Virus record (IMG/VR): IMGVR_UViG_3300038393_002936
Direction: 5' to 3' (one strand)
DNA: 64,000 nucleotides
Source: a virus
Shown here in pieces: positions 1-63,497 of this stretch (position 1 is the stretch's first letter; the number at the start of each line of letters is the position of its first letter). The notes beneath the pieces are model-generated. The model made no database searches. It saw only the letters and a program-made list of their open reading frames with translations, and was not told the DNA's origin. Both the position numbers and the translations under genes were made by a program.

Positions 1-536
1 AGTTTTCCGCCGGCCTTACGTTTGGCCATAATCAGTCGGCCGGTCCGGCTGTAAGAGGGGTCGGCCCCGCTGAACAGCCCGTACTCGGTCAGCACGACGG
101 TATCCCCGGCGAACAGCAACCACTTGAGCCACTCGACGGGCGACGACTGGCCCTTGGCGTTCGTCGACAGGTAATACGCCCCTTCGGCCCCCAGGGCGTC
201 CCCGAAGTCCTCGCGGATGGCCCCGGCCCACACCCCACCTAGATACTCTCCTGCCGGAGGAATCACCTCAACCCGGGCGGCGACCTGAATGGCCCGGATA
301 ATCGAGGCGACAGCCTCCTTCCCGTCGACCACGCCAAACTCCTCGCGGAGTTGGCCGGCGACGAGCGAGCTGTACTCGGAGGTGGCACGCAGGGCTTCGG
401 CAACGGTCTCGCGGACTTCCGGCAGGAGAGTCTCAGCCAGGGTCCGTAATTTGGGTACGGCCTGCCGCTGGAGCTCAACCAGAATCTGACCGGGGAGGCG
501 GGCAAGGTCGGCGTCGACCGTGACGGTGATGGCCAT
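1..536 (-). CDS. partial putative neck/tail-completion protein (runs off window start)
   Basis: ATG at 536 overlaps the upstream stop; open frame MAITVTVDADL...VEWLKWLLFAGDTVVLTEY...SRTGRLIMAKRK to the window edge; function from position after head genes only. Confidence 0.55.
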   Translation of the reverse strand, partial: MAITVTVDADLARLPGQILVELQRQAVPKLRTLAETLLPEVRETVAEALRATSEYSSLVAGQLREEFGVVDGKEAVASIIRAIQVAARVEVIPPAGEYLGGVWAGAIREDFGDALGAEGAYYLSTNAKGQSSPVEWLKWLLFAGDTVVLTEYGLFSGADPSYSRTGRLIMAKRKAGGK

Positions 537-1027
537 TATGGAGCCCGCTTCCACTGTGTAACGACGAACACACCCTGGACGATGTTCGACACGTCCACGG
601 GGTCGTCGTCCCGGACGTACATCCACCGGGCGACCGCGTCGAGCTCGGGCTGCAACTGGAGCCGCTCGGCGGCCCGGAGTTTAGGGAGGTCCGTTAAATA
701 CCCCTTGGTCTGAATGGTCCCGTCGGGAATCTGGACGTTCGGCGGGGGCTTTTTCCAGAAGTCCTTGGGGTGGACGGCCACGCCCATCTTGAGCGTCTCG
801 GTCACCTCCTTCGCCCGGAACCCGTTCCCCCCGCACAGCGGGCAGGTCGTCACGTCGCCGGGCGGGGCCGGGCCGCCGCTCAGCCAGACGTTCCCCGCAC
901 ACCCGCACGCCTCCTGGGTCGGCGGATAAAACAACTTGCAGTTCTTGCCCAGCTCGGTAATCAGGTCCTCCAGGGCCTGCTGGGTGACCGATTTGATGGC
1001 CGGAGTGAGAGTGAAGAGAACTCCCAT
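536..1027 (-). CDS. putative head-closure/adaptor protein with Zn-finger
   Basis: ORF 536..1129 trimmed to MGVLFTLTP; CxC...CPLCGGNG motif; located in head-completion cluster. Confidence 0.55.
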   Translation of the reverse strand: MGVLFTLTPAIKSVTQQALEDLITELGKNCKLFYPPTQEACGCAGNVWLSGGPAPPGDVTTCPLCGGNGFRAKEVTETLKMGVAVHPKDFWKKPPPNVQIPDGTIQTKGYLTDLPKLRAAERLQLQPELDAVARWMYVRDDDPVDVSNIVQGVFVVTQWKRAP

Positions 1028-1064
1028 TGTTGCTCGCTTCGCTCGCCGTCGAACAAAGTTCGAC

Positions 1065-1295
1065 TCAAGAAGTTGCCGGGCCCCCGGGCCGTTCCCACCC
1101 GTCCGTACCGCCCACTTTGAATCGGGCATCGAGCGTCGTGCCGAGCCCAGGGTCGGTCATCCCATCGACTACCGCGAAGGTCCGGTCCAGTTCGTAATCG
1201 GTGGAACTGGCCGACGGCCCGCCCTCGGGGGCCAGGATGGTCGCCCGGACCTGGTCAATCGTTTTCTTGGAGTCGTCGTGGTAGTAGATTGGCAT
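1065..1295 (-). CDS. hypothetical protein
   Basis: MPIYYHDDSKK ORF filling the gap in the late operon. Confidence 0.45.
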   Translation of the reverse strand: MPIYYHDDSKKTIDQVRATILAPEGGPSASSTDYELDRTFAVVDGMTDPGLGTTLDARFKVGGTDGWERPGGPATS

Positions 1296-1309
1296 TTGTC
1301 CCACCCGCG

Positions 1310-1834
1310 TTAGCGGGTGCCCCACCTATAAATCCCGGCCGTCCCGAACGGCATGTCGGTCCCGTACCCGCTGAACAGCCGGAACGGGCTGACCACCGCG
1401 GCCCCGGTCTGGACCCCCCGCTGGCTGACCAAGTACTGTTCCCGCATGTCCTGGTAGACCGCGTTCCACCCCTTCAGCATCAAATCGAGTTTGGCGGTGA
1501 AGGCGGCCCGCAGGTCGACCTCGCTCGCCCCGTCGCGGACCCGGATGGCCTGGTCGGCGGCGGCGGTCGCACTCCCCCGGTCGATAATCCCGGCCGTCTT
1601 GACCGTGACCAGGTCCACGAAATTGTCGTCGGGTTGGGCCAGCAGCGTGGGGTCCGGGTCAATCGTCCGGCCGACCACATCGACCGTGAAGGCGGTCGGA
1701 AAATCCACGTCGAAAATGACGAGCCGGGCACCCACGCACAGGGCCTGGGTCAGGTCGTCGTTGCTGTACTTGGTGGACGCGCGGTCGCTCACGTACCACC
1801 GCAGCATCGGAATCATCACGTCGGTCCAGGCCAC
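1310..1834 (-). CDS. putative head-tail connector protein
   Basis: 174 aa directly downstream of MCP; helical 'MLRWYVSD...KYSNDDLTQAL' start typical of gp15/gp6-like adaptors. Confidence 0.6.
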   Translation of the reverse strand: MAWTDVMIPMLRWYVSDRASTKYSNDDLTQALCVGARLVIFDVDFPTAFTVDVVGRTIDPDPTLLAQPDDNFVDLVTVKTAGIIDRGSATAAADQAIRVRDGASEVDLRAAFTAKLDLMLKGWNAVYQDMREQYLVSQRGVQTGAAVVSPFRLFSGYGTDMPFGTAGIYRWGTR

Positions 1835-1901
1835 GGTCAGCGGGCCTCCCCCGGCGTCCCCAGCAACACAATCAGTACGAACATGGTGGCTCTCCTGCCG
1901 G

Positions 1902-1913
1902 ACTCATACACCA
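1902..1913 (-). promoter_or_regulatory. candidate late promoter motif TGGTGTATGAGT
   Basis: identical 12-mer upstream of portal (8477-8488); GTGTAT core also at 6211-6219 and 14769-14776. Confidence 0.5.
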
Positions 1914-1940
1914 CACTCGCTCTGCTCGTGTGGGCGGCAC

Positions 1941-1975
1941 AAAACGAAGGGGCCGGGCGTTTCGTGCCCGGCCCC
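1941..1975 (-). terminator. intrinsic terminator after major capsid gene
   Basis: minus strand GGGGCCGGGCAC-GAA-ACGCCCGGCCCC followed by TTCGTTTT. Confidence 0.7.
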
Positions 1976-2002
1976 ACGAGGCGACATTCTAATTTATGTC
2001 TG

Positions 2003-6195: not shown

Positions 6196-8433
6196 TTATT
6201 CCTCGTCCTCACATACACCGTCGTCGTCGTCGAACGTGACAAGTGCGTACGCCATCGCCCGCAACTGGCGGGTCTGGTCGGCGGCCGGAGGCTTCCCGTA
6301 TTCGGCCACGTGCCGGGCGACCGCGGTCTGAACCAGTTGGTCGACGGCCGGGAATACGCGGGGGCCGGCGGCGAGAGCGGCCCGAACACTCTCGGGGCTG
6401 GCCGGCGAATTGACCGCGTGAGCACACAGGACGCCCAACTTGACCCGCTCGAAGGCCTCGGCGTCGGCGTCCGTCAGTTCCCGGGCGGTCTTGAGTCCCT
6501 TGGCGGCCAACAGAGACGGCCGGAGGACCTCGTCGACCGTCTTGAGGGTCGCGTCGGCCCACAACGAGGCCCGAGCCAGGGCGGCCGAAGCCTGTTTGGG
6601 AGCCGGTCGCTTGGTCTTACGTTTGGCCTGGTCTTTGGACCCGGCCGGTCGCCCGTTCGGCTTGGGGTTTTTCTTGTCGCCTGACGGCGCACCTCCGGCA
6701 GGTCGGCTTCGCCGACGTGAGCTTTGCTCACCAGGAGAGGGAGCAGTAGGACGCTTGGCCGGGGGAACCTCGCCGGGCTTGGGCGGGGGCAAGTCGAGCC
6801 CGACCTGGGACGGGGTCACCTCGCCCTGGCCCAATAGGGTCTGGTGAAGCTTCGCTTTTTGCTGAGAGTCCTGGTGGTACGGCCCGGCCTTCGGCGGCAA
6901 AGCCCCCTGCTCCCGCTTCCGCCCTTCCTGCCGGATACGGGCCTGCTCGATGTCGGGGTCGGCCCCGAACCGCTGCTGGACGTAGGTCGCACTGATGACA
7001 TCGCGGTCGATGAGGTCCCTCAACAGGGCCTTCTCGGCGGCATCGTCGGACAGGTCGGGGACCGCGAACGACAGGCTGAACGGCTGGCGGAACCCGAACG
7101 TCTGCCGGAGAATCTCGAGCTCGCCCAGCCAGAACTGCGAGAGCACCATCCGGGCGTACTGGAGTCGTTCGACGAGCACCCGCAGGGACACAAAATTGTT
7201 CGTCATCCCGGCGTCGGTCATCGCCCCGGTCAGGGTCGGCGGGACCCCCAGGCCGATGAACAGGTTCTGCATGGTCTGGGCGTACTTGTCCTTGCCCAGG
7301 AACCGGTAGATTTCCGTGCCGGTCTCGACCAGTTCGAGGTCGGGGCCCCAGACCAGGTCCATGCACCCGCCGCCGGTCGAGTGCAGGAGGATGTCCGCCA
7401 GCATTTGGCAGGCTTCCTGGTTCGGGATAATCTCCTTGTCGAGGTTCCCGAGCTTCCACACGCGGACGTGCGAGATGGCCCCGTCGAGGGCACTGCGGTC
7501 CGCCATCCGCAGCTTCTCGAACATCTGGAGGTCGTCCAAAACCGCGTTCAAAAGCGGCGTGGCCCAGACCTCGTCGTCGTCCTTCTTGTACTGCAAAATA
7601 ACGGTTTTGTTGGGTTCGAGCGGGACCCACTTGTCGTTGACCATCCGCTGCCGGAGGGCGGCCGGGATGCGGCTAACTAGCTGCTTGTCGGCGACACTCC
7701 GCGGGGTCGTGATGCGTTTGAGGAGGGAGTCCGGCGGACGGACCGCGTACGTGACGACGTCGTCGCCAATGAACTGGGCCAGTTCCCCGCCGATGGCCTC
7801 GACGGTGACCGGGTTCAGGACCTTGTAGCCGACCGGAATCTCGCCCGGGGGTAATTTCGTCCTATCGGAACCATTATCGGCCCCCACCGCCGCAACAGCC
7901 CGTAAGGAGGCTATGTCGTTATTGGCCAGTTTGGCAGTTCGACGCCTGATGGGGGCGACGGCTTCACGGAAAAGTCGACGGACAATCCGGTCGCTCACAC
8001 CGGCGATATCGGCTTTTTTGGCCCACTCTCGCCCCCACGCCTGGACCTTGGCGGCCGGGTGAACGACCTGGATTCCCTTGTTCACGAAATCCGTCATCAT
8101 GTCGACGGTATTGCGTACAATGGAGAATCGCTTATAGGCCATCTGGCAGGCGGACTGTATCCCGTGAACTTCGGTCGGGAGCCGCTCGCCCGGCCGGAAA
8201 AAGTCGTAATCCTCGCGGTTGAACCCGTCACGGACCGAGATGCCCGGCTTGTCGATGTTCCGGAACGTACCGATGGCGGTCGCCCGTTCGGCGCCCTGGG
8301 CACTGCGGCTGGCGACGGCCCCGTACCCGACCGCGGCGGCGTTCAGAGCGGCCTGCTTGCCCTTCACGTCGCTGGACTTAAAGGTCTGGTAAAGCGGGCG
8401 TTCGGGACTGTTTTCGGGGCGAGTTCTGCGCAT
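6196..8433 (-). CDS. portal protein with C-terminal extension
   Basis: directly downstream of TerL; 'IVRNTVDMMTDF', 'YKKDDDEVWATPLL', 'GLGVPPTLTG' segments; start could be the GTG at 8478. Confidence 0.8.
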   Translation of the reverse strand: MRRTRPENSPERPLYQTFKSSDVKGKQAALNAAAVGYGAVASRSAQGAERATAIGTFRNIDKPGISVRDGFNREDYDFFRPGERLPTEVHGIQSACQMAYKRFSIVRNTVDMMTDFVNKGIQVVHPAAKVQAWGREWAKKADIAGVSDRIVRRLFREAVAPIRRRTAKLANNDIASLRAVAAVGADNGSDRTKLPPGEIPVGYKVLNPVTVEAIGGELAQFIGDDVVTYAVRPPDSLLKRITTPRSVADKQLVSRIPAALRQRMVNDKWVPLEPNKTVILQYKKDDDEVWATPLLNAVLDDLQMFEKLRMADRSALDGAISHVRVWKLGNLDKEIIPNQEACQMLADILLHSTGGGCMDLVWGPDLELVETGTEIYRFLGKDKYAQTMQNLFIGLGVPPTLTGAMTDAGMTNNFVSLRVLVERLQYARMVLSQFWLGELEILRQTFGFRQPFSLSFAVPDLSDDAAEKALLRDLIDRDVISATYVQQRFGADPDIEQARIRQEGRKREQGALPPKAGPYHQDSQQKAKLHQTLLGQGEVTPSQVGLDLPPPKPGEVPPAKRPTAPSPGEQSSRRRSRPAGGAPSGDKKNPKPNGRPAGSKDQAKRKTKRPAPKQASAALARASLWADATLKTVDEVLRPSLLAAKGLKTARELTDADAEAFERVKLGVLCAHAVNSPASPESVRAALAAGPRVFPAVDQLVQTAVARHVAEYGKPPAADQTRQLRAMAYALVTFDDDDGVCEDEE
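6694..6741 (+). repeat. motif A split by two 15-nt hairpins, inside portal CDS
   Basis: TCCGGCAG GTCGGC-TTC-GCCGAC GTGAGC-TTT-GCTCAC CAGGAGAGGG. Confidence 0.75.
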
Positions 8434-17900: not shown

Positions 17901-17942
17901 TTCCGGCAGGAGAGGAAGGGTGTGTTCTCTTCCCTGCCGGAA
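17901..17942. repeat. motif A inverted pair
   Basis: TTCCGGCAGGAGAGG...CTTCCCTGCCGGAA, intergenic. Confidence 0.8.
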
Positions 17943-21779: not shown

Positions 21780-21793
21780 TAGGGGCAATAACA

Positions 21794-22018: not shown

Positions 22019-22047
22019 CCACGAGCCAACAAGGGGGATTGGAAGCC

Positions 22048-41996: not shown

Positions 41997-42016
41997 GAAA
42001 TATCGCTTGCGACAGC

Positions 42017-42658: not shown

Positions 42659-42671
42659 AAGGGAGTTCAAA

Positions 42672-42983: not shown

Positions 42984-43180
42984 ATTTTCCCTACCCCCGG
43001 ATTTGCCGCCATGCGGTCGCAAGCAACCTTCTGTCAGAACTCGAAGCGAGAGGCTGGAAGTGTCCGCCTGAATTGGAGGAGGCGGTCGTCCGATGTCAGG
43101 ATGATGACGCAATCGCCATAATCGACAGGCTTGTTGGCGAAGCCGACGGGACCGGAGGTCCGGCAGGAGAGGTTAAGTAG
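42923..43180 (+). CDS. hypothetical protein (C-terminus overlaps repeat)
   Basis: AGGAGG RBS; ends GEADGTGGPAGEVK encoded by the hairpin-A element. Confidence 0.55.
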   Translation: MELDKPITIQDVLSLVHGLLNFPYPRICRHAVASNLLSELEARGWKCPPELEEAVVRCQDDDAIAIIDRLVGEADGTGGPAGEVK

Positions 43181-43205
43181 GAACGCCCTCCCTTCCCTGC
43201 CGGAA
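43133..43205. repeat. two-hairpin A/A' element
   Basis: GTTGGC-GAA-GCCGAC G GGACC-GGA-GGTCC GGCAGGAGAGG...CCTTCCCTGCCGGAA. Confidence 0.85.
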
Positions 43206-43255
43206 CTTTGTTATTGATAGTTCAGCTGGCCACCAGAGTATTTCGAGGAACAATC

Positions 43256-43501
43256 ATGGCCCACTGGCGTGAAAAACTGGACATCAAGCAATTTTTACAG
43301 GGCGATTCTCTTCCTCCTGACGAGCCCGTTCCTGTGGAATTGGTCACGCAAGTTCGGGAGGAAATCAAGAAGAGTAGGCTACTGCCCGTCGCCTCATTGC
43401 TAGAAGAGCTCGACTATGTGGCTACGGTCGAGGATTTTGATAACTGGCTCGAGGAACTTTACAACGAGGCGGATGCAAAGCGTGTGTGGTTGGGTCTGTA
43501 A
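43256..43501 (+). CDS. hypothetical acidic protein
   Basis: MAHWREKLDI...FDNWLEELYNEAD. Confidence 0.6.
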   Translation: MAHWREKLDIKQFLQGDSLPPDEPVPVELVTQVREEIKKSRLLPVASLLEELDYVATVEDFDNWLEELYNEADAKRVWLGL

Positions 43502-43521
43502 ATCGAAACAAGGAGCCAATA

Positions 43522-44520: not shown

Positions 44521-44609
44521 CGGCACCGTGGAAAGACTCAATATAAGAATAGTTTCTGTGAGGAACAAACCTCGCCCGCTTCTCGAACCCTTACCTCTAG
44601 GTAACAAAA

Positions 44610-45494
44610 ATGGTTATTGGCAAGATTAACCCGACCGGCCTTATCACGTTCTGGTCACTTTCGGAATACTCGAATCGCGAGAAACTGATGGGGGCATGGT
44701 CCCCCCTCGGACTCGGCAAGTTGGTGCCGGAACCGCGACCTGCGGTCACCTGCTTGAAGGATGCCATGATTGAGGTCGTCGGGTCCTCGAAGAACCTAGT
44801 GCGACCTCTGGCCTCGCGGACCGGCTTCGTGGTGGTCAACGAGACGCGGGGGACCGAGGAGAACCAGTACCAACCGCGGTTTTCGGCTCGGGTCACCGAG
44901 GGTATCAACAAGCCTTTGTTCTCGATTGATACCGAGGAGACCCGCAAGGTCGAGGAGAGTTTCTACAAGCATCTGGGCCGGCTCCGCAACACGCAAGTCA
45001 CGGCCGCCCTGGTTGCCGCCGTATCGCAACTGGGTGGAACTCGCCTGCGGCCTTCGGGCGGCATCTACTGGTTGGCCGGAGACAGGCTGGAGGCCTGGGA
45101 GCAGCTGGCCGCAGGAGCGACCGACGCAGCAGAAGATGGCCAAAACACAATCTATCTTTTGAAACACGATTTGGACGCCTCGGCGGTTACCGCCGTAAAG
45201 GATGCCATCGTGGCCGAAATCGAGTACGAGACGAACCGACTAGTGACCGAACTCCGCGAGGGAGACCTGGGCCGTCGGGCGGTCGAGTCTCGGAAGCGTG
45301 AAGCCGCGGCTTTGCGGGACAAAGTGAGTGAGTACGAAAGCATCCTGAACGTGGGCCTTGAACACCTCCGCAAACACCTGGACGCGGTCGACCAGACGGC
45401 CGCTCTGTCGGCCCTGTTGTTGGCGGCGGACTTGGAATCGGCCGACCAGGAAGACGCGAGCGGGAAGGAGGTGCGAGATGCCGTCACGGTGTGA
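44610..45494 (+). CDS. AAA/vWA-module-associated protein (DUF3150/DUF6744-like)
   Basis: between AAA and vWA genes; 'LRPSGGIYW' motif and coiled coil. Confidence 0.55.
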   Translation: MVIGKINPTGLITFWSLSEYSNREKLMGAWSPLGLGKLVPEPRPAVTCLKDAMIEVVGSSKNLVRPLASRTGFVVVNETRGTEENQYQPRFSARVTEGINKPLFSIDTEETRKVEESFYKHLGRLRNTQVTAALVAAVSQLGGTRLRPSGGIYWLAGDRLEAWEQLAAGATDAAEDGQNTIYLLKHDLDASAVTAVKDAIVAEIEYETNRLVTELREGDLGRRAVESRKREAAALRDKVSEYESILNVGLEHLRKHLDAVDQTAALSALLLAADLESADQEDASGKEVRDAVTV

Positions 45495-46770
45495 TTCGGG
45501 TTCGGAGAACCCGTTCGGAGCCCTCGAAGAACTTGCGGCACGCCAACAAGCCGCCGACAAGGCGAAGTTGGCCATCACGGCGGCCCGAGCCCGCTTGCTG
45601 CTCGGGCGAGACGCCAAAAGCGTGTTCTTCGCGACCCTGGCCTTGCGGCTGAAGGTGGAGGAGGACTGGACCTGCGAGACGGCGTGGGTCGACGGCAAGA
45701 CTTTGGGCTACAACCCCAGCTTCATTAGTGGTCTGACGCTGGACGAGGTGGTCGGGGTACTCGTCCACGAGACGTTACACGTCGGATTGGCCCACCATGT
45801 GCGGCGAGGGGACAGGGACCCGACCAAATTCAACGAAGCAGCAGACCTGGCCGCCAATTCCATCATGAAAGGAGCGAGCTTTAAACTGCCGAAAGGAGCG
45901 TTGTTTCCCGGCGAGGGTAAGTACAAAGATTTTGCGTCTGACTTGTCTGCCGAGGAGTATTATGTAATGTTGCCGCCGGACCCACCACCGAGCGAGAGCA
46001 ATGACGGTCAGGGTGACGGAGGCGGAAACGGCGAAGGTCAGGATGAAAACGTGAGCGACAGCGTGCGACCGGGTCGGGACCCGGGGCGCACAGGGGAGGT
46101 CCGAGACCCCGGCCAGGGCAGTCCCGCAGAGAAGGCGGACGCCAAAGCCGATTGGGAAGTGGCGGTCGCCCAGGCCGAGCAGGCAGCCAAGCAGAGAGGC
46201 CCCCTTCCTGCCGGACTAGCCCGAATGGTGGACCAGGTGTTGAGGACGCCCGCCGACTGGCGGGCTATTCTGCGAGAGTTCGTTTCCCAACAAGCCCGCA
46301 ACGATTTCAGTTGGAGCAAACCGAACAGGCGGTTTATCGCCCAGGGGCTGTACCTGCCCGGTTTGCACAGCGAGGAGCTCGGTGAAGTGGTCATCATGGT
46401 GGACTGCTCGGGGTCTGTCGGCCCGAACGAGCTGGCCATGTTCGGTTCGGAAATCGACGGGATTCTGTCCAGCTACGAATGTGAAGCGACCATCCTCTAT
46501 CACGACGTGGAAGTGGTTGGGGTCGAGCACTGGCGGTCGTCGGACGGCCCGCTAAAGCTGGAGCCTGTCGGGGGCGGGGGCACGTCGCACCGCCCGGCGT
46601 TCGACTGGGTGAGCGGAGCTCACCAGGGAAGTGGAGCAGCATGTGTGGTTGCCCTGACCGACCTCTACACGGAGTTTCCTCGTCAAGCACCAGATGTTCC
46701 GGTCTTATGGGCGGTGGTCGGAAACAAGGGGGCCGAGGCTCCTTTTGGTCGGATTATTCATTTGGACTAA
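45478..46770 (+). CDS. DUF2201-type metallopeptidase + vWA domain protein
   Basis: TAWVDG, HETLH (HExxH), N.AADLA.N, DCSGS MIDAS, GGGGT, LTD. Confidence 0.85.
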   Translation: MPSRCDSGSENPFGALEELAARQQAADKAKLAITAARARLLLGRDAKSVFFATLALRLKVEEDWTCETAWVDGKTLGYNPSFISGLTLDEVVGVLVHETLHVGLAHHVRRGDRDPTKFNEAADLAANSIMKGASFKLPKGALFPGEGKYKDFASDLSAEEYYVMLPPDPPPSESNDGQGDGGGNGEGQDENVSDSVRPGRDPGRTGEVRDPGQGSPAEKADAKADWEVAVAQAEQAAKQRGPLPAGLARMVDQVLRTPADWRAILREFVSQQARNDFSWSKPNRRFIAQGLYLPGLHSEELGEVVIMVDCSGSVGPNELAMFGSEIDGILSSYECEATILYHDVEVVGVEHWRSSDGPLKLEPVGGGGTSHRPAFDWVSGAHQGSGAACVVALTDLYTEFPRQAPDVPVLWAVVGNKGAEAPFGRIIHLD

Positions 46771-46791
46771 GGCATTAATAGGGAGGATTGC

Positions 46792-47229
46792 ATGGATATG
46801 TACACCGGTCTTCGGGCGTCGGTCGTCGTCAAGCCCGAATGGCGAGCGGCCATCGGCCTTTTGCACGAAACGGAAGCAGATGACCGTTGGCGGCGAGTAT
46901 TTGATTCCTTCCCGGCAATTCCGGGTCTGAACAAGTGGGTCGAAGTTTGGCGGCGGGATTATATCCCATTCGGCGACCTGGCTTATATGCCAGAGGACTT
47001 TAGCGAGGCTGAAGACAGAGAATCCTACTCGACATACGAATTCGCCAGCGGCAAATGGACCTTTTGTTGTTCGCTGAAGAACTACGAAAATGAAATTAAA
47101 ATTTTCGTCGAAAACGTTCTTGCCCACATCGTGGAACGGGTCGAATATTGCGAGTCTCTCTATGAAGACTATCCGCCGGGTGACTGGCGGAAGTGGACCA
47201 CAAGATGGCTTAAGGAGGGGAACGTATGA
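46792..47229 (+). CDS. hypothetical protein
   Basis: RBS supplied by motif B (TTAATAGGGAGGATTGC ATG). Confidence 0.65.
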   Translation: MDMYTGLRASVVVKPEWRAAIGLLHETEADDRWRRVFDSFPAIPGLNKWVEVWRRDYIPFGDLAYMPEDFSEAEDRESYSTYEFASGKWTFCCSLKNYENEIKIFVENVLAHIVERVEYCESLYEDYPPGDWRKWTTRWLKEGNV

Positions 47230-47540
47230 AGTGGAAGTTGTTGTTCAAGGCCCCGGGCGGCCACCGGTATTTCGAAGCCGAAGACGGTCGCGTTGCCGTC
47301 GCGGATGATTCGGGAGCGACCCCGGACAAAACCGAAGACGGAGTGCTGTACCTGGACAAGAGTCGACCTATCAAGATGGGGAAATTCGGGTCAATCCCGG
47401 TCCTCACGGAAGAAGGTGAACAAACGTCTGTTCTGGAAGTGGCGGAAGGTGCCATTTTGGTTGCAAACCGGTTCAAAATGTTGATTAATGCCGGCCAGCA
47501 GCACTTCGACGTTGCCCCGGTGATGGAGATGCCGTCCTGA
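47226..47540 (+). CDS. hypothetical protein
   Basis: ATGA coupling, AAGGAGG RBS. Confidence 0.6.
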   Translation: MKWKLLFKAPGGHRYFEAEDGRVAVADDSGATPDKTEDGVLYLDKSRPIKMGKFGSIPVLTEEGEQTSVLEVAEGAILVANRFKMLINAGQQHFDVAPVMEMPS

Positions 47541-47582
47541 GTCACTCTTGTGCTTGCTTTTTGTGTCTAACTGGAGAAAAGC

Positions 47583-47846
47583 ATGGCTAACGGAAATTCG
47601 AGTGGCGGGATGGGACTGGGTGGGTTCTTGATGGGTGGCCTGACGATTTTGTTCGTCGGGCTGAAGCTGGGCGGTGTCATTGATTGGGACTGGCTATGGG
47701 TGCTCGCACCTCTCTGGCTACCCATCGTGGCAGTAATCGGGATTTTCCTTGCCAGCGTAGTTTTGGTCGCCATCGGGGCGAGCATTTATTATCTGTGCGG
47801 GGCTCTGGCGGGCTATTTATCCGACCGCAAACGGACTATTCGCTAA
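47583..47846 (+). CDS. small membrane protein
   Basis: LTILFVGLKLGGVIDWDWLWVLAPLW, hydrophobic. Confidence 0.7.
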   Translation: MANGNSSGGMGLGGFLMGGLTILFVGLKLGGVIDWDWLWVLAPLWLPIVAVIGIFLASVVLVAIGASIYYLCGALAGYLSDRKRTIR

Positions 47847-47879
47847 AGTAGATAGTCGGTTTTACCGACAGAAGCGTAA

Positions 47880-47977
47880 TTCCGGCAGGGAAGGGACACA
47901 GGGGTGATTGGCGGGTGGAGTTTCAGCGAGCGAAGCGGACCATGCAATCCCCCCTATTGGCCCCTACCCTGCCGGAA
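47880..47977. repeat. A-B'-A' element
   Basis: TTCCGGCAGGGAAGGG...GAGCGAAGCG...GCAATCCCCCCTATTG...CCCTGCCGGAA. Confidence 0.8.
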
Positions 47978-48018
47978 TTTTACCTATTCGCTTCTTTAGT
48001 CCCTTAAAAATAAAACAA

Positions 48019-48222
48019 ATGCCAACCCGCGAGATGGTTCTGTTTGTGTTCGTTCCCCTGAGTGGGGGTCTAATTTCACTCTGGTTTGGCTACAGATTTA
48101 GCCATATCGCACCACCCGTGCGTCTGCTAATTTCATTTTGCGCCGCGGGCATCTACGGCTGGCTAATGGCTCATCTTTATAACAAGCTGGAGGCTTGGAA
48201 TGGCCGCCGAAAAGCTTCTTGA
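48019..48222 (+). CDS. small membrane protein
   Basis: two hydrophobic segments. Confidence 0.5.
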   Translation: MPTREMVLFVFVPLSGGLISLWFGYRFSHIAPPVRLLISFCAAGIYGWLMAHLYNKLEAWNGRRKAS

Positions 48223-48760
48223 CCAACGCGACTACGAAATCAGCTGGGCTACCCCGCCACTGCACCGCCCCGCTCGAGTCGTCATTAAAGGGGAGTCTTA
48301 TGGGCTCCAGGCCGCACTACACCTTTTAAACCAAAATCCAGCCCTCTGGCCACTCCGCGTTTGCTGGTCGCCCGCGACAGCGATGGAGGTTGAAAAAGCC
48401 GGTGCCGGGGTGCGAAAATTGGAGGATGGGACCGTCGCGGTACTGGCCGAAGACGGTCGAACCTTGCTGATGGGTAAACCGGCCCCGCTCACTCGACAGG
48501 AGGCCGGACGGCTCTGGAAGCTGGCGGACGACCTCGTTTCAATACTACAGGTTGCCGGGGTTCATGTGGACCAAGGACCGGATGAGGTGGTCTACTCGGC
48601 TGGCGACGAGTTGGAAACCGTGGCGGTCGTGGGAGCCACTGGCGACCTGACGTACAGTCAGGTCTGGTGGGCACACCACCACCAGTACCAGGCCAGCCTC
48701 ATCGCGGCTCATGCTGTACTATGGCCTCTTTATGTTGTGGCTAGTCGCGTCTATAGCTAA
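48200..48760 (+). CDS. hypothetical protein
   Basis: GGAGG RBS, 186 aa. Confidence 0.6.
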   Translation: MAAEKLLDQRDYEISWATPPLHRPARVVIKGESYGLQAALHLLNQNPALWPLRVCWSPATAMEVEKAGAGVRKLEDGTVAVLAEDGRTLLMGKPAPLTRQEAGRLWKLADDLVSILQVAGVHVDQGPDEVVYSAGDELETVAVVGATGDLTYSQVWWAHHHQYQASLIAAHAVLWPLYVVASRVYS

Positions 48761-48773
48761 AAGGAGTAAGCCA

Positions 48774-49157
48774 ATGTCTGAGATTAACCCCTGCACGCTT
48801 TGGGCGTTTCTTGAGAAGTTTTACCAAAGCGATGAAAAAGACCTGACATCTTTACTTGTTGCCTGTGATTATCTGGGAGAACATGGCGATTCTCGGGGTG
48901 AGAACCTTCGTCGTCGCATCAAGCGGCAGGCTGCTCTGAAGGCAAAAGTAGCCGTTAAGTATGGGGACGGATACTCACAACGAACAAGCTGTGGGCTACA
49001 CAATTATGTACGTGACATGTTTCCCGAATGCAAAACCTCATACAGCCTCTTAATGAGAGAAAAGGTCGACAGAACAATGAGGCGACTGTGGGGCCTTTTA
49101 CCGAGTCGCCAGGAACAGTCGCACGACACCGGAGAAGTGTCCTGGAGCTCGAAATAA
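48774..49157 (+). CDS. degenerate TIGR02996-like protein
   Basis: DLTSLLVACDYLGEHGDSRGENLR resembles D.PRLVYADWLEE.G..RAEFIR. Confidence 0.55.
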   Translation: MSEINPCTLWAFLEKFYQSDEKDLTSLLVACDYLGEHGDSRGENLRRRIKRQAALKAKVAVKYGDGYSQRTSCGLHNYVRDMFPECKTSYSLLMREKVDRTMRRLWGLLPSRQEQSHDTGEVSWSSK

Positions 49158-49261
49158 TCACGCACGACCTTGTGCGAGCCCAGTATTACGCTAAAATATG
49201 CTCTATTGAACCGAATGAGGCAAGAACGCAGGCCCTGGCGGGGCCGACTTCAGGAGGCCCC

Positions 49262-49993
49262 ATGAATCAAGAAAACGCCTTGCTCCGAGCTATTTGCGAG
49301 AATATCGACGACGACACGCCTCGGCTTGTTTTCGCCGACTACCTCGAAGAACGTGGCGAAGAAGCCTGGGCCCAGTTCATCCGAAGCCACATTGCCGCCA
49401 CAAGAGCTGGCGTAGCCGAGTTCGGAGACGAATCGAACGACCGCTCGTTGAAACTCGAGTTTGTGCCACCCAAAACCGTGGTGGTCAAGGTTGTTCCTCC
49501 GGACGGCCCCGATAAGACTGGTTCAGACTCGAGCGTGCCGCTTTTTCTTCAGTGGGCTAAGCGACTTGGGCTTCCTGACTGCCTCGAATATTGCAAGCTG
49601 AGTCGATGGGACCGCGGATTTCCTGCTGTTTATAGTATCGAATCCGCAGTTGGCTTCTCCCGGTCTGTTAAGACATCACTATTTTCTCGAGTGCCCATCC
49701 GACATTTTAAGGTCGAGTCCAGACAACCACAAGAAATGTCGGCATATGCCGGCTCGCATTCTTGGTTTGAGTGGCGCAAGCAAATAAAAGGCAACCGCGG
49801 GAGATATTTTCTTCCAGCAAGTATTTTTGAGATACTCGACAATCCAGCCCAAAACATAAGCTTAGTGCATTTTTTCTCCAGAAAAGAAGCGGACGAAGCC
49901 GCGTGGACTGCGTATGCGAGGCGAGGGCGGGTTTTGAATTTGGGTCATACTGGGGAGAACCGGGTTGCCGGGTGCTTAGTCACGGAGCGTTAA
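49262..49993 (+). CDS. TIGR02996 domain protein
   Basis: ALLRAICENIDDDTPRLVFADYLEERGEEAWAQFIR...WDRGFP. Confidence 0.85.
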   Translation: MNQENALLRAICENIDDDTPRLVFADYLEERGEEAWAQFIRSHIAATRAGVAEFGDESNDRSLKLEFVPPKTVVVKVVPPDGPDKTGSDSSVPLFLQWAKRLGLPDCLEYCKLSRWDRGFPAVYSIESAVGFSRSVKTSLFSRVPIRHFKVESRQPQEMSAYAGSHSWFEWRKQIKGNRGRYFLPASIFEILDNPAQNISLVHFFSRKEADEAAWTAYARRGRVLNLGHTGENRVAGCLVTER

Positions 49994-50237
49994 TAGAGGG
50001 GATTGGATGGACTCCGTCCATCGGAGGCGGCTGTGAACCCTGACGAAATCCGAGCCGAATATGCCCGTATCGAAGCCGAGGAAGAGGCCGCCGAACGCGA
50101 AACTCAAACTTGTCTCTCTCTGGCTTCGAATGCAGAAATTGCGGGAGTAGTGTTCACACTCGCGGGCGGAACCTTGTGCGGACGAGTGCTCTGACTACCG
50201 CCAGGCTTTTGACTAACATGCCTTCCGGAGAAGAAGC

Positions 50238-50444
50238 GTGGAAAGGATGAAATGGATACGGGACGCCGACAGCAGCGACCAGCGAAGTGCGTGCGGCCGG
50301 TTCCTCATCCGCCGAACCTGCACGAATCCCAAATGGTGGGGTTACTGGAGTTTGACCGACACCACAACCGGAGAAGAATTTCCTTGTAGGACAGAGTCTT
50401 CAGCTAAGACCGCGGCCCGCAATAGGCGAAATGCAACTGGCTGA
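50238..50444 (+). CDS. hypothetical protein
   Basis: GGAG RBS. Confidence 0.5.
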   Translation: MERMKWIRDADSSDQRSACGRFLIRRTCTNPKWWGYWSLTDTTTGEEFPCRTESSAKTAARNRRNATG

Positions 50445-50475
50445 TGTTCTGAGTCCTTTAAATCGTCAAAGTCTA

Positions 50476-50629
50476 TTCCGGCAGGAGAGGGACAGGGTGG
50501 TGTCGGAAGAAGGCTCGGCCCACCCAAGCAATCCCCCCTATTAAGAGTGAGTGAAGCGAATTTACCCCTCTCTAACCCTTACTTCCCTGCCGGACCTTCG
50601 GTCCCGTCGGCGGACGCCGACTGCCGGAA
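50476..50629. repeat. composite A-B'-A'-hairpins element
   Basis: TTCCGGCAGGAGAGGG...CAATCCCCCCTATTAA...CTTCCCTGCC GGACC-TTC-GGTCC...ACTGCCGGAA. Confidence 0.85.
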
Positions 50630-53495: not shown

Positions 53496-53897
53496 ATGAA
53501 CCGCATAAGTGTCTATTGGAATTTGCACACTCGAAATTACTCCTTGAAGGACTCCGGCAGTCGCCTTCGGCGACCGGAACGTAGTTCCGGCAGAGGAGGA
53601 AGGGTATTTGCCCACCAGGACATCGTCTTGCTCCGCGATTGCACGTTCAAAGTCTGGGAAGGAGGCCGCCAGCGGGTCTTGCGAGAAGGCCAGAAAATGG
53701 TCCACGCATTCGTCTGCGGCACACCGGTTAAGCCGCAGGATTTACCAACGCACCTTGGGTGCCCAGAGCGAGTTCGCTATAATCCTTACGAAACGAAGAC
53801 GTTCGTTCGGGCCGATTCCGGCGAACCTATTTTTGAGGCTGCTTGGGTGCTACTGAAGAAGGAGGGAGACAAGCCCGTGGTTTTGGCTTATCCATGA
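53496..53897 (+). CDS. conserved phage hypothetical protein carrying an in-frame repeat insertion
   Basis: VYWNLH...GRV.AH...GRQRVLRE..KMVHAFV.G...YNPY pattern; repeat at 53553-53604. Confidence 0.7.
   Translation: MNRISVYWNLHTRNYSLKDSGSRLRRPERSSGRGGRVFAHQDIVLLRDCTFKVWEGGRQRVLREGQKMVHAFVCGTPVKPQDLPTHLGCPERVRYNPYETKTFVRADSGEPIFEAAWVLLKKEGDKPVVLAYP
53553..53604. repeat. two-hairpin A element inside CDS
   Basis: TCCGGCA GTCGCC-TTC-GGCGAC C GGAAC-GTA-GTTCC GGCAGAGG. Confidence 0.8.
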
Positions 53898-55300: not shown

Positions 55301-55482
55301 TTCCGGCAGGAGAGGGGACAGTAGGGCGGGAAAGGTGAACTCGTGGGCGGGTAGCCGCATCACCCGTGAACGAAGTGAACCATCCAATCCCACCTATTAA
55401 CCTCTCCTGCCGGAACTTCGTTCCCGTCGGTTTCGCCGACTGTGGAAAGCTTCGCTTCCGTTGACGGAGTCAACTGCCGGAA
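55301..55482. repeat. longest composite element (A-B'-A'-4 hairpins)
   Basis: reverse complement aligns with 34518-34600 and with 14830-14867 (B + TTCACTTCGTTCACGGG). Confidence 0.85.
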
Positions 55483-55561: not shown

Positions 55562-55813
55562 GTGAGCAATAAACCGGACCACGTGCCGTCCCACTATAGA
55601 CAGTTCAGGTCCAAGAACCGGGACTTCGTTCATATCGAAAACGGGTGGTGTGCCAGACAGGTCCGGGGCAAATGGCGGGTTTTTTATGGTCTTTTACGGC
55701 CGGGGCAAGAATACCCGACCTATGTGACCACTTATCAAGAAGCCGACTCCTATCTGGATTTCATCCAGTTTGCAGAACTCGAACAGTGGGTCTTGGCTCG
55801 GAGAACGCTATGA
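55562..55813 (+). CDS. hypothetical protein
   Basis: coupled to the LexA-like gene. Confidence 0.55.
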   Translation: MSNKPDHVPSHYRQFRSKNRDFVHIENGWCARQVRGKWRVFYGLLRPGQEYPTYVTTYQEADSYLDFIQFAELEQWVLARRTL

Positions 55814-56313
55814 ACGCCCCTGAGCTAAGCTCCCGCCAGCTCGAACTCCTGCTTTTTTACATCAAGCACATCGAAGAACACGGCTACCAGCCGACTTACC
55901 GCGAGGCTGCGACCCATTTTGGAATTACGTCCCGAGCCATTCAGGACCGTCTCTTACAACTGGCCCGCAAGGGTTACTGTGAAATGCCCGTGAAGCGAGG
56001 TGACCGCTGCGTGCGGTTCCCCCACCTGCGCTTTGAACATCACTTCGTGTCCGAACCCACCCCTCCCGAAATAGTGGACGAACCCCATCCCCAGACCGGC
56101 GAAATCATCCGACTTGCCCTTCAGACCTTCTTCTTCAATAATGATAACGAACCTGCCAAGGTCGCCACCATGGCTGAGACCATCGGGGCTGCAATTCCGA
56201 AGGTCTACGCGGCTCTGAACCACGATAAGGAAGGGATTTTTCGAAAGGTCAAAGGGCCAGGGAGGGCCATCTTGTGGCAACTGAGGACCGGTGCCAAAGA
56301 TGCTCGAGTCTGA
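55810..56313 (+). CDS. LexA-type winged-HTH regulator lacking peptidase domain (candidate repressor)
   Basis: LSSRQLELLLFYIKHIEEHGYQPTYREAATHFGITSRAIQDRLLQLARKGY; second wHTH-like C-terminal domain. Confidence 0.75.
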   Translation: MNAPELSSRQLELLLFYIKHIEEHGYQPTYREAATHFGITSRAIQDRLLQLARKGYCEMPVKRGDRCVRFPHLRFEHHFVSEPTPPEIVDEPHPQTGEIIRLALQTFFFNNDNEPAKVATMAETIGAAIPKVYAALNHDKEGIFRKVKGPGRAILWQLRTGAKDARV

Positions 56314-57377: not shown

Positions 57378-57905
57378 GGCGACCTTTCACGGAGATATTT
57401 CGGACGGTTGCTCCATTCTGGTCCGACCCCGACAATTGGTAAAGGTGCGGCAATTTTGCAGAAGTCCAGATAGGCAACTGACTTTTACCGTTTCTCACAA
57501 TCTTTTCATGAAAATTTATCGGACATGACTATTGAGGTTTTGCCACAACTATGCTGGTCCAACACACTTCGTCTGACTTTCTGCTGGTGACTTGCTCGAG
57601 CTTTTACCCGCCGAGACCGCAATCCCCTCTTTTTCAGGAATTTTTTCCTGACTCTGTTCGCCGACAGAATTGGTCCAAGAAACCAGAGCACATTATCATA
57701 ATTATTTATAAGTCAATATTTACAACGAAGCCTTGGTGCTCGGATTCACGCCGCACCCGGCACTCTCTTGGTTGGGGCTGTCGCCCGGAAACCTCGGCTT
57801 TCCGACGCGCTTAAAACGCGCTTATATTACGTCATGAACCATTCTCTTATCAGAACAGCCATCATGGCTTTCCGCAAGTCCAAGTTCCAAAGGAACTTGC
57901 CACAG

Positions 57906-57949
57906 TGGGTCCGGCGGGATTCGAACCCGCAACCAAGGGATTATGAGTC
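57906..57949 (-). mobile_element. attP core: 3' half of a tRNA with CAU anticodon (Ile2/Met-like)
   Basis: minus strand GACTCATAATCCCTTGGTTGCGGGTTCGAATCCCGCCGGACCCA (anticodon loop, T-arm, acceptor 3' strand); no 5' half; about 140 bp from the integrase stop. Confidence 0.8.
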
Positions 57950-58088
57950 GTGCGTTTCACGCACCGCTATAGGCAAACGCCAGTACAGGTCACCGCCGTA
58001 AGTTCAGCCATCAGCAACTATTGCTCTCCCGCGCTCTTTGCCGCCGGCTACCACGCAGCTCGGAGTCGCGAAAAAATAATCGCGCTGT

Positions 58089-59258
58089 TCAGTCGGCCCT
58101 GGACTCCTTGGCGAGTTGCTCGAAGAGCAGGTCTGCGTCGTACGCTTGCTTGGCGTCGAGATAGTATTGCTGAGCGGTCTGTGAAGTGGTCCCGATGGCA
58201 TTCGCCGCCGCATCGACACTGCCCGCCATCCGGGTGGCCAAGGTGATAGCCCGCCGCTTCAGCGAATGGGGCGTAAGACGGGGCTGACCAGGGCGTTCAT
58301 CATTAAACTCTCTGAATATGTTGGAAACGGCCCAAAAGAGCGTTTTAGGGTCGAATTCGTCCTTGTTCTTGGTCCCTGGGCGGAATTTCTTGGCGTCCTC
58401 TGCGTATCGCTCCCACAGCCAGGTCGGGCCGGCGATGGTCTGGAGGCTTGCGAACAAATTAGGGGACAGCTTGATGACTCGGTCGCGACGTTCTTTTTTC
58501 ACCGAAGCGGGGAAGAACAGGCGGCCATCTCGAAGGTCGCTCGTTTTGAGAGAGCAAAGGTCCATCGTCCGACATCCGGCCAGGGCTTTCGTAATGACCC
58601 AAAGCCGCACGAGTGTCCAATCAGGATACCGCTTCTGGAGCCAATCCAGAAATTTGTCGTACTCGTCGGTAGTCGGGACGTGTTTTCGGACCTTGTCGAC
58701 CAGCGGCGGAGAGATGCCGGACCACGGGTTGCTTTTAACGTAGCCCAACTCGTCAAAGTGCTTGTTCCAGAGGGCAGATAGTTTTCGGAGGTAGGTCGCA
58801 GTTGTCGTGGAGCTTCGTTTGTAAACAGTGGCGTCTTTGGCCTTACTCCGCGTAAATCCGGTTGAGCCAAACAGGCGTTTAAATCGTTTGGCGTGTTCGA
58901 CCGTAACGTCAGCCGGCCCCCTCGTGCCTTTAATTGTATCCCGAAATACCCGAACGGTTTTTAAATAATCCTGGAGCGTCCCGGGCCTAATGTCGGTCGT
59001 TTTTTGAAGCTCTTGGACAACATCGTCCCACGAGACGACCACCTCGCCTTCGGGTGTCTTCTCGTAGGCCTTGTGTATCATGCGAACCGCCACCTCGTGG
59101 GCTTCGGTGATGGTTCGACAGCCCGTGCTCAGTCGCCGGAACTTGTCCAGTCCCGGAGGTTGGAACCGTACCTGGTAAACCCCCCGTTGGTCCTGAAGAC
59201 CGTAACTGACCAAAAGTCCATTTGGCAGAAGGGTGCTGAATTCGGGCCGCTTTGGCAC
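58089..59258 (-). CDS. int: tyrosine recombinase/integrase
   Basis: GCRTMDL (R), K, TPHSLKR (HxxR), QQYY (Y); SAM-like core-binding domain; adjacent tRNA-derived att. Confidence 0.88.
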   Translation of the reverse strand: MPKRPEFSTLLPNGLLVSYGLQDQRGVYQVRFQPPGLDKFRRLSTGCRTITEAHEVAVRMIHKAYEKTPEGEVVVSWDDVVQELQKTTDIRPGTLQDYLKTVRVFRDTIKGTRGPADVTVEHAKRFKRLFGSTGFTRSKAKDATVYKRSSTTTATYLRKLSALWNKHFDELGYVKSNPWSGISPPLVDKVRKHVPTTDEYDKFLDWLQKRYPDWTLVRLWVITKALAGCRTMDLCSLKTSDLRDGRLFFPASVKKERRDRVIKLSPNLFASLQTIAGPTWLWERYAEDAKKFRPGTKNKDEFDPKTLFWAVSNIFREFNDERPGQPRLTPHSLKRRAITLATRMAGSVDAAANAIGTTSQTAQQYYLDAKQAYDADLLFEQLAKESRAD

Positions 59259-59821: not shown

Positions 59822-59938
59822 TCCGGCAGGGAAGTGGGTGTGCCCGCCCCCACCAGGGGAGTTTGCATGTTCGCCCGACCCCCCTGCCCTACTCTCCTGC
59901 CGGACCTCCGGTCCTGTCGGCTTCGCCGACTGCCGGAA
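59822..59938. repeat. composite A-A'-hairpins element
   Basis: TCCGGCAGGGAAG...CTCTCCTGCC GGACC-TCC-GGTCC T GTCGGC-TTC-GCCGAC TGCCGGAA. Confidence 0.85.
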
Positions 59939-61860: not shown

Positions 61861-62481
61861 GTGGCGAAGAAAAAGAAACCGGAAGAAACTGAAAAAATCG
61901 AAGCCGCTCCACTGGCCAGCTCCACTGGGAAGAAACCCTCTCCACTCCTTGGTCGTCTCAAGACGGACTACGGTATCGACCGTGATGCATTCATCATAAT
62001 GTGGGAAGAAGGCGACGACCTCGAGGATACCTATCACCGAATGGTCGAATACTGCGTCTCGAGAAACATGCCCCCGATTCCCAAGGCGATTATGTGTGCG
62101 AGGGCATCTTACTACCGCCAAGAAGGGTACAGAGTCAAAAAGCACCCACCCGGCCGCAAGAAACCTGCGAACGACGTGACCAAGGTCAACCGGATGATAG
62201 CCGAAATTCGGGCTCGAAAACTGGCCGGCGGTTCGACCCCCATACCGCCTGCAACACCCCTGGCGGCCCCTCCGGAGTCTCCGCCACAGCACAAGGTGGT
62301 GGAGGGGCTCAGGGAGGCCCTCGGGACTCGGGATATCCCGCCGTCACCTCCGGCTGCCGCCCCCACCCCGACTGAAGAAACTGGGGTGGGGGCGAAGCCC
62401 CAGAAGGGCCCGGCCTACACCCAACAACAGGCCCTGGACATCCTTCGGCGACTGGGCTCAGCAAACCCGAAAAACTCCTAG
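61861..62481 (+). CDS. putative HTH protein with Pro-rich tail
   Basis: AFIIMWEEGDDL...ARASYYRQEGYRVKKHP; similar to 57036..57377. Confidence 0.65.
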   Translation: MAKKKKPEETEKIEAAPLASSTGKKPSPLLGRLKTDYGIDRDAFIIMWEEGDDLEDTYHRMVEYCVSRNMPPIPKAIMCARASYYRQEGYRVKKHPPGRKKPANDVTKVNRMIAEIRARKLAGGSTPIPPATPLAAPPESPPQHKVVEGLREALGTRDIPPSPPAAAPTPTEETGVGAKPQKGPAYTQQQALDILRRLGSANPKNS

Positions 62482-62506
62482 AGCATCTCACAAAACGAAC
62501 ATCGCC

Positions 62507-62548
62507 GGCCCGGGGGAGTCTTTTTTGGCTTCCCCGGGTCTTTTTATT
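62507..62548 (+). terminator. intrinsic terminator
   Basis: GGCCCGGGGGAGTC...GGCTTCCCCGGGTC followed by TTTTTATT. Confidence 0.7.
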
Positions 62549-62549
62549 G

Positions 62550-62578
62550 TTGATTCGCGAAGCTTCTGCATTTACAGT
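62550..62578 (+). promoter_or_regulatory. sigma70-like promoter
   Basis: TTGATT-17 bp-TACAGT. Confidence 0.45.
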
Positions 62579-62623
62579 GTTCTTGACAGTGTTTAGAATA
62601 ACTGTAGAGAACCAGACCGCGAG

Positions 62624-63130
62624 GTGAACATGTCCGAGTATCTCCCGTCAGCGTTCCGAGATTTGGCACAGTCCCTTTCCCTGCCGGAACTCGACGTCAT
62701 TATTGTCGCCGACGGAAGTGGCACGGTCCCGAGCAAGTCAGGCGGGTGTGCTGCCCTTATTTGGGACCGCCGAACAGATGAAACTCACGAAATCAGGTCT
62801 GCCCTGTCGCACTCCACGAACAACTTTTCCGAACTCTTCCCATTCGTCCACGCCCTCTGGATGATTCAAAAAACCGCCAGCCTGGCCCGGGGCGACTCGG
62901 TCGGCTGCGTGAGCGATAGCCAGATAACCGTAAAGGCAGGCCAGAAACTCTATTCTCGGTCGGCAAACGAATGCCTGTGGGACGCAATCGAGTATTTCGA
63001 GACAGGAGGAATCAGGTTCGAGTGGAGATGGGTTCCTCGAAATTCAAACCCGCTCAACGCCTGGTGTGACAAGCGCAGCCGGGAAATGAGAATTTTATTA
63101 GAACCACAAGTTGTGCCAACCCAGACTTAG
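62624..63130 (+). CDS. RNase HI-like protein
   Basis: IVADGSG, STNNFSEL, VSDSQ, WRWVPRNSNPLNAWCD. Confidence 0.8.
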   Translation: MNMSEYLPSAFRDLAQSLSLPELDVIIVADGSGTVPSKSGGCAALIWDRRTDETHEIRSALSHSTNNFSELFPFVHALWMIQKTASLARGDSVGCVSDSQITVKAGQKLYSRSANECLWDAIEYFETGGIRFEWRWVPRNSNPLNAWCDKRSREMRILLEPQVVPTQT

Positions 63131-63148
63131 CAAACCAGGAACTCCGCA

Positions 63149-63343
63149 GTGGACAACATCGAAAGCCGTATCCAAAAAGCACTCGCGGTCATTGAAAAAT
63201 TCAGTAGATGCGACGGTGCCCACCACAAACAGTGGGTTATCGACCAAGTTGTCAGGCCTCTAACCCAAGACAAGTACGAAGAATGGGTCAAGCAATACGA
63301 GCAACGTGGCGAGTTCGAATGGGATAAAGGAAAGGCACCATAG
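63149..63343 (+). CDS. hypothetical protein
   Basis: DGAHHKQWVIDQVVR...WDKGKAP, phage-like motif. Confidence 0.6.
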   Translation: MDNIESRIQKALAVIEKFSRCDGAHHKQWVIDQVVRPLTQDKYEEWVKQYEQRGEFEWDKGKAP

Positions 63344-63455
63344 CCGCCCTTTCTAGTAAGAGGTGCTGTCTCGGCCACAAGCCGAGGAATGCACGTGCGA
63401 CAAGCGGAGCCGTGAAATGAGAAATTTATTAGAGCCACAGACCTCGTCAGCTTAG

Positions 63456-63497
63456 TTCCGGCAGGAAAGGGAGCACATTACCACTTTCCTGCCGGAA
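63456..63497. repeat. motif A inverted pair
   Basis: TTCCGGCAGGAAAGGG...CCACTTTCCTGCCGGAA. Confidence 0.85.

Follow-up and report, generated by a model that had tools for sequence, protein, structure and literature searches.

A conserved 13-bp word, a mobile 33-nt double-hairpin unit and gene-junction cassettes in a large tailed phage, probably of Gemmataceae

Non-coding hairpin units of 30-45 nt have been described as GC clusters (GC42; PMC4478555) and as double-hairpin elements of fungi and sponges (PMC2800124). Hairpin mini-elements of such size are known from mitochondria and, in bacteria, as repetitive extragenic palindromic sequences (REPs), and how they move is still open. DNA uptake sequences and uptake signal sequences (DUS/USS) are dense, lie on both strands and in several frames, form inverted pairs and exist in dialects. 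In mycobacteriophages, a repressor monomer with two DNA-binding domains reads an asymmetric 13-mer (PMC9283540). The subject here is a repeat system in 64,000 nt of viral DNA (IMG/VR record IMGVR_UViG_3300038393_002936; the whole stretch is called the window). The system consists of three layers and is not one element: a word (motif A), a mobile 33-nt unit, and cassettes of motif B and of A-B-A' pairs, in which two copies of motif A converge. An earlier note on this DNA had taken the whole grammar for one undescribed mobile element; mobility holds for the 33-nt unit, but the grammar as a whole is not one mobile element and motif A is the target. No published description of this system was found in literature searches.

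The window is part of a large tailed soil phage with a total genome of ~166 kb. The major capsid, portal and terminase genes lie on the minus strand, up to ~14.7 kb of the window, and beyond this point a long plus-strand arm of small genes follows. Strain records for comparison were gathered via protein look-ups and are all metagenome assemblies; every main allele is present in at least two records.

Motif A in the window, in relatives and in host genomes

The by-eye estimate of about 55 copies of TCCGGCAGG turned out to be exact: 55 dispersed copies (250..63496; 29 plus, 26 minus) are present, against 1.10 expected and a highest count of 4 in shuffles. The extension of the core was also read correctly. 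A purine follows in 53 of 55 copies and another in 53, then A and G in 47 each, and the preceding base is T in 32. The full form, TCCGGCAGG(AG/GA/AA)AG, is 13 bp long and asymmetric, and its density is ~1 per 1.2 kb. Copies are concentrated at gene junctions, with 33 in 10.8 kb of intergenic DNA, and lone cores also lie inside genes, with 22 copies in several reading frames in 53 kb of coding DNA. The enrichment persists under a codon-aware null model, since 2.85 copies of the 9-mer are expected in coding DNA when synonymous codons are shuffled (at most 8 in 500 shuffles) and 22 are observed; for the 13-mer the figures are 0.05 and 10. In comparison with a strain 93-94% identical, none of 30 third codon positions within motif cores was changed, against 15.9% in the flanks (P ~0.006). 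What is preserved is thus the DNA word itself, irrespective of the protein encoded. These features suggest that motif A behaves like an orientation-free binding site, presumably for a protein of the phage.

Two other origins of the word were rejected. Its purine tail precedes start codons only rarely in the window, which speaks against a ribosome site (in relatives it does so in about a quarter of the copies, by eye), and the letters of the reverse strand that would make up an extracytoplasmic function (ECF) sigma -35 element are not conserved in relatives.

Five other high-GC relatives, with terminases 51-64% identical, carry more of the core GCAGGRRRG than expected (7-15 copies against 1.7-2.4), and each has its own 5' letters and preferred tail; the core is lacking in low-GC distant relatives. 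On a contig of the Gemmataceae genome G001, a related prophage adjoins host genes, and of the core copies there, 23 fall in the 40 kb of prophage and 2 in the 38.5 kb of host DNA (P 2e-5). This prophage adjacency, together with a TIGR02996 domain above cut-off in three window proteins, makes a Gemmataceae planctomycete the probable host. In 79 of the 81 genomes compared from the likely host family, the 13-mer does not exceed background (0-5 copies), and the two higher counts (11 in 13.7 Mb and 20 in 9.5 Mb, the latter in G015) are both far under the phage density. With the host genomes at background and the word confined to the prophage, motif A is a phage word, neither a host REP nor an uptake sequence. 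The element had no match in 50,697 GenBank phages. The paired pattern gave 1, 2 and 3 isolated matches in viral, genome and metagenome collections, without local enrichment or related genes, and the unit end and a looser pair gave only unrelated single matches in the collection scans.

That the repeats are a host REP or MITE (miniature inverted-repeat transposable element) family which invaded the phage, a possibility the earlier note had left room for, is very unlikely. It could draw on G015, where an inverted-repeat family has TCCGGCAGGAAAG in its arms and REP-like interiors; this family has ~20 copies in 9.5 Mb, is without 33-nt units and differs in flanks and interiors. The other genomes of the host family are nearly all at background, the unit end is found at most once across 252 genomes, and the word is prophage-confined in G001 and clade-wide in phages. 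The consensus of the Ssn-related motifs (SRM) has no match in the window on either strand, and GTAG or CGTC stands within 10 nt upstream of only 2 of 55 copies of motif A; the motif is not a tagged palindrome. The G015 family itself (L024-L037) is REPIN- or MITE-like, with TA-ended inverted arms around REP-like palindromes; the 13-mer in its arms is the same as motif A, by coincidence or shared origin.

A still less probable view is that molecular drive has built up motif A as a DUS- or Chi-like signal, biasing uptake, packaging or recombination, and that the word regulates nothing. Its density, its presence on both strands and in several frames, the convergent pairs at gene ends and the lineage dialects would all be in keeping with such a signal. 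Host-type chromosomes are not enriched, however, phages are without competence machinery, and an analogue confined to phages would be new, with no protein as a candidate for it.

The leading candidate for the reader of motif A, on circumstantial grounds, is a protein encoded near the integrase (55810..56313, plus strand). A LexA-type winged helix is followed in it by a second winged-helix-like domain, with no peptidase domain; both winged-helix domains, of LexA fold, are predicted at a predicted local distance difference test (pLDDT) value of 90. Members of its family sit on records of the same size as those of related terminases (165,822 and 61,150), and in the Gemmataceae prophage a one-domain version lies at the junction and the word is shorter. 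The tandem family without peptidase (P0127-P0165) is apparently tied to this phage clade, and one-domain versions exist.

With such a reader, motif A could be a stoperator-like immunity site which silences the prophage, the hairpins and pairs being regulatory decorations and not selfish. The phage is probably temperate, since the 3' half of a tRNA(CAU)-like sequence, a putative attP, adjoins a tyrosine integrase gene (58089-59258, inside the feature 57903..59258, minus strand). Temperateness, the asymmetric 13-bp word, its lineage-specific variants and the two-domain repressor-like candidate would agree with silencing. So would three copies of motif A situated behind sigma70-like -10 boxes at a distance of 4-11 nt (one duplication accounts for two of the three), and the lone intergenic copies, which are 9 sense and 2 antisense (P 0.065). 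Stoperators follow transcription (PMC9283540), whereas motif A is 31 sense and 24 antisense overall and 10 sense and 12 antisense in genes, and polymorphic in-frame inserts are found in the portal and other genes without evident regulatory role. We consider this explanation improbable. The duplication just mentioned is an 86% identical tandem one, 2.03 kb apart (23895-24600 and 25924-26600), and comprises promoter, motif A, reversed motif B and two genes. The attP-like tRNA half had no match in 61 genomes of the Gemmataceae family with 2 mismatches allowed, and Rfam and ARAGORN found nothing in the window.

The 33-nt double-hairpin unit

Two to four short hairpins had been noted on the outer side of the pairs. 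Hairpins are present there, but their number is not free: they come as units of two 15-nt hairpins plus 3 nt, 33 nt in all. Tandem 15+15 hairpins occur 10 times in the window under strict settings and 0-1 times in shuffles. Triloop hairpins closed by C-G, with loops GNA, TNC, AAA or TTT, dominate the short hairpins of the window, and such triloops are described in one report as making unusually stable DNA mini-hairpins (PMC13037366). Across the strains, 27 distinct units are in a common phase; most of their stem positions are occupied by 2-4 alternative base pairs, and the loops are in either orientation.

A unit starts after the GCA or CAG of the motif, and a motif copy, whole or half, is left on its right. 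At five or more orthologous sites (at least five, three of them in frame in genes, portal included) the unit is present in some strains and absent in others. Exact +/-33 alleles are seen at three sites (each in 2-3 assemblies), a +63 allele at a fourth, and filled and empty states at 35919. The strains thus do vary at the elements, as the earlier note had expected.

In the portal gene (6196-8400, minus strand), a unit lies in frame inside motif A at 6694..6739 (plus), with CAG on either side. It is absent from L013 and L014, relative to which the 33 nt add 11 residues to a proline-rich linker. Another unit is in frame in the gene of a PF25735 (L5 gp82-like) protein (53552..53598, plus); at the same place L047 and L050 have an empty site consisting of one intact motif A. 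The short PF25735 allele fits the profile length, and the long allele is therefore derived. The array at 33994..34072 (plus) has two units in the window and one more (+33) in L039, L040 and L043, with the same insert in run X7. The +33 allele at 34018 is in shifted register, as expected from unequal exchange between arrays. At 35919..35990 (plus), motif A is without hairpins in the window, and in the L039 region two copies are filled with 66 and 33 nt and have a different gene between them. At the site 62380..62403 (plus), in the open reading frame 61861-62481, L146 and L147 carry a partly decayed in-frame array of two units, +63 nt net, with diverged flanks. A further unit (28146..28193, minus) is found at a gene 3' end, its right motif copy decayed. 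A 33-nt indel at 57002 was not counted as a unit, having no hairpins and lying in a diverged stretch.

An identical right-hand hairpin recurs at unlinked sites, which suggests that units are copied between sites and not made from the local flank. Hairpin expansion also occurs outside the motif, since a lone triloop hairpin off motif A (61149-61166) is tandemly duplicated, +19 nt, in L146 (~5600).

The constant point of entry raises the question of an enzyme. A phage enzyme may recognise motif A and nick or cut it, the unit being a non-autonomous transposon with a 3-nt (or ~8-nt) target duplication, like the GC clusters of yeast mitochondria or the REPs moved by RAYT, although we hold this to be rather doubtful. 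All units start at the same point of the motif, and GCA or CAG flanks both unit types on each side; selection at the DNA level seems to act on the hairpins, whose GNA loops occur on either strand; and the phage encodes HNH, ERCC4 and other nucleases besides the tyrosine integrase. No HUH, RAYT, Ssn or GIY-YIG protein, however, is among the families listed for ~110 proteins from ~80 kb, about half of the ~166-kb genome. Cut sites tend to be lost and motif A is conserved, and the unit ends in a copy of the 5' half of the motif itself, for which homology-driven copying suffices with no enzyme.

Motif B, A-B-A' pairs and the accessory arm

Motif B is a family of AATAGRGGGGATTG-like sequences with 15 strict copies in both orientations (21761..50542). 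Read forward, it often comprises a stop codon, a purine-rich ribosome site and ATG, and six reversed copies lie within A-A' pairs. Convergent pairs of motif A within 140 bp number 15 against 2.4 expected, with one divergent pair. They include all 14 that the earlier note had listed, the fifteenth being 5014/5093, inside a gene. The interior was said to be often motif B. This is so for nine pairs with a motif-B-like interior, but five short ones (39-46 bp) are without B: 17902..17941 (both strands) and, alike, those at 24693, 43159, 59380 and 63457.

Two clean gains or losses of whole genes have motif B or A-B-A' pairs at their borders. At 23088..23105 (plus) the window has one copy of motif B, and in six strain records a 253-nt insert with a 71-aa gene lies between two B copies. 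At 34518..34680 (plus), a 66-nt array, an A-B-A' pair and a further unit are found, where L039 and L040 have two A-B-A' pairs flanking an extra 133-aa gene (+802/803 nt). The gene replacement at 35637-36139 likewise begins and ends at arrays and B. The earlier proposal that the element shuffles and controls accessory genes is borne out by these events as to gain and loss of genes; on control, there are only the three copies behind sigma70-like promoters. A 318-nt indel at 5545 lies away from the motifs, as does a LAGLIDADG intein in the terminase (window ~10045) of a close strain (L013 10001-13447), none being present in the window. Near the motif B site at 23088..23105, the gene at 23130-23859 is split or frameshifted in the window; L018 has a single 242-aa frame running through the motif B copy.

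The remaining pairs show the same parts in varied arrangement. A decayed hairpin array and an A-B-A' pair (39683..39815, plus) lie in frame in the linker of a DUF3560-methyltransferase gene and are fixed in the compared strains. Two pairs lie in 31218..32034 (both strands), one with B forward (31218-31282) and one with B reversed and one unit in front (31959-32034). An A-B-A' pair at 50477..50628 (both strands) carries a minus-strand unit. At 55302..55481 (both strands), an A-B-A' pair just behind a sigma70-like promoter is followed by a minus-strand 66-nt array, and L050 differs there in loops and stems. At 59822..59938 (both strands), B is decayed within an A-A' pair that is accompanied by a 33-nt unit on the minus strand; the L146 version is shorter and decayed.

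The A-B-A' pairs fold into long stems and are not called as terminators. No empty allele was seen at the 7 pairs compared between strains, nor a common target duplication or shared flanking repeat among the pairs. An invertible switch was rejected, as the orientation of B was constant at every orthologous pair compared; one opposite-strand joint, of depth 2.4, is probably a paralogous copy. With no empty site, shared flanking repeat or inversion, the A-B-A' pairs are not established as MITEs.

Several neighbouring features were recorded in the course of the comparison. At 49262-53486, 4 or 5 consecutive genes begin with the Gemmataceae TIGR02996 domain; one is broken by a stop near 51531, and the C-termini differ between strains. 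A three-gene module (43522-46770) encodes an AAA ATPase, a DUF6744 protein and a metallopeptidase-VWA protein; its VWA gene contains half a unit at 46608. An ECF-like sigma gene (13966-14577) and a 287-aa helical gene (13136-13999) lie upstream of the terminase in all near relatives checked, and the pair is kept even in L002, a relative without clear motif enrichment. The related prophage of G001 (G001:C5 38500-78816; L143-L145) has a LexA-like-to-sigma arm of ~11 kb, against ~41 kb in the window, and a local TTACTGAC repeat.

Proposed mechanism and comparison with known systems

It was directly observed that the word is conserved, that insertions at one fixed point of the motif are polymorphic, that frame is preserved and that genes are gained or lost at the repeats. 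The explanation that accounts best for them, to which we give an even chance, is a selected phage word, colonised by enzyme-free hairpin units, plus PeSL-like cassettes (PeSL, promoter-early stem-loop). Motif A would be a 13-bp site kept by selection, most likely bound by a phage protein, and being abundant and near-identical, it became a landing pad. The unit enters at CAG, rebuilding or keeping a motif copy on its right, as the empty and filled alleles show. As it amounts to 11 codons, it is tolerated inside genes. Most likely, units would spread, expand and contract without a transposase of their own, when motif copies recombine or a template switch leads from one to another, with the help of the 8-13 nt of homologous motif on either side. 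The shifted register at 34018 and the unit end which copies the start of the motif suggest that copying uses motif halves as homology. Motif B and the A-B-A' pairs, whose breakpoints are seen in the strains, may act as PeSL-like crossover points for gene gain and loss in the accessory arm. On this evidence, we regard a dedicated enzyme as less likely than recombination between copies of the motif.

Several points weigh against this explanation. The units were chosen for pairing, which inflates the pairing counts, and no double-hairpin units were seen in distant relatives. Two near terminase relatives have little or no enrichment of the core in the stretches compared (L016, 1 against 1.3; L002, 3 against 0.8). 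The strains may come from one soil sequencing campaign, and the Joint Genome Institute (JGI) and Logan records may share raw reads. The candidacy of the reader draws solely on co-occurrence, with one informative pair. The fixed CAG entry point with its 3-nt repeat would be no less expected of a nuclease or transposase. An enzyme is a serious rival for this reason, and because the proteins examined come from only about half of the genome. In its strongest form, which seems unlikely, a phage enzyme reads motif A and inserts units at CAG, rebuilding the target, as a minimal site-specific insertion system. Such an enzyme would write 11-codon inserts into proteins and build recombination cassettes, and would be unrelated to RAYT, Ssn and known transposases.

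The system is a case of a conserved DNA word that a frame-preserving element has colonised and that has become part of gene-shuffling cassettes. For an orientation-free phage word which runs through the clade and is preserved in structural genes, there is no established explanation. Few descriptions exist of Planctomycetota phages, and neither this phage nor its host is in culture. With empty and filled alleles at a defined 13-bp target, a small genome and few candidate proteins, the phage makes the question of how such elements move testable.

Among known systems, motif A resembles DUS/USS in density, strands, frames, inverted pairs and dialects, but is phage-limited, not enriched in host-type chromosomes and without an uptake system. 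With the stoperators of Cluster A mycobacteriophages (PMC9283540) it shares a 13-bp asymmetric site in dozens of copies, a temperate phage, lineage variants and, by prediction, a two-domain reader. Stoperators are oriented with transcription and sit in short intergenic gaps, whereas motif A has no orientation bias, 40% of its copies inside genes, convergent pairs and a role as insertion target. REPs and REPINs, CGTC-tagged REPs, Ssn-related motifs (PMC3733652, PMC11893778) and Rickettsia palindromic elements share with the phage repeats short hairpins, inverted dimers, mosaic arrays and in-frame copies in genes. The phage repeats differ from this group in their 6-bp stems with 3-nt loops and in being phage-limited; no RAYT or Ssn gene is among the families listed for about half of the genome. 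The A-B-A' pairs have the inverted arms of MITEs, but a common target duplication and empty sites are absent in the compared strains.

The PeSL cassettes of T4-type phages (PMC2839356, PMC4122927) are, like the phage repeats, short and located at accessory-gene junctions, and the passage from one repeat to two flanking a gene is found at 23105 (+253 nt) and 34612 (+803 nt). The likeness seen is one of arrangement, and none in sequence would be expected. The phage cassettes have no promoter-plus-terminator anatomy, promoter-like sites lying beside only 3 copies; they occur in both orientations and are built from a word which saturates core genes too. GC clusters and double-hairpin elements share with the phage unit flanking repeats of 2-3 nt, presence or absence between strains, conserved stems, arrays and no known dedicated enzyme. 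The phage unit stands apart in residing in a bacteriophage and not an organelle, in having as target a conserved 13-bp genome-wide word and not a 2-3 nt site, in its fixed 15+15+3 geometry with GNA triloops and in rebuilding its own target. As a two-hairpin unit with a flanking repeat and strain-dependent presence, it works like a GC cluster or double-hairpin element, a likeness of behaviour.

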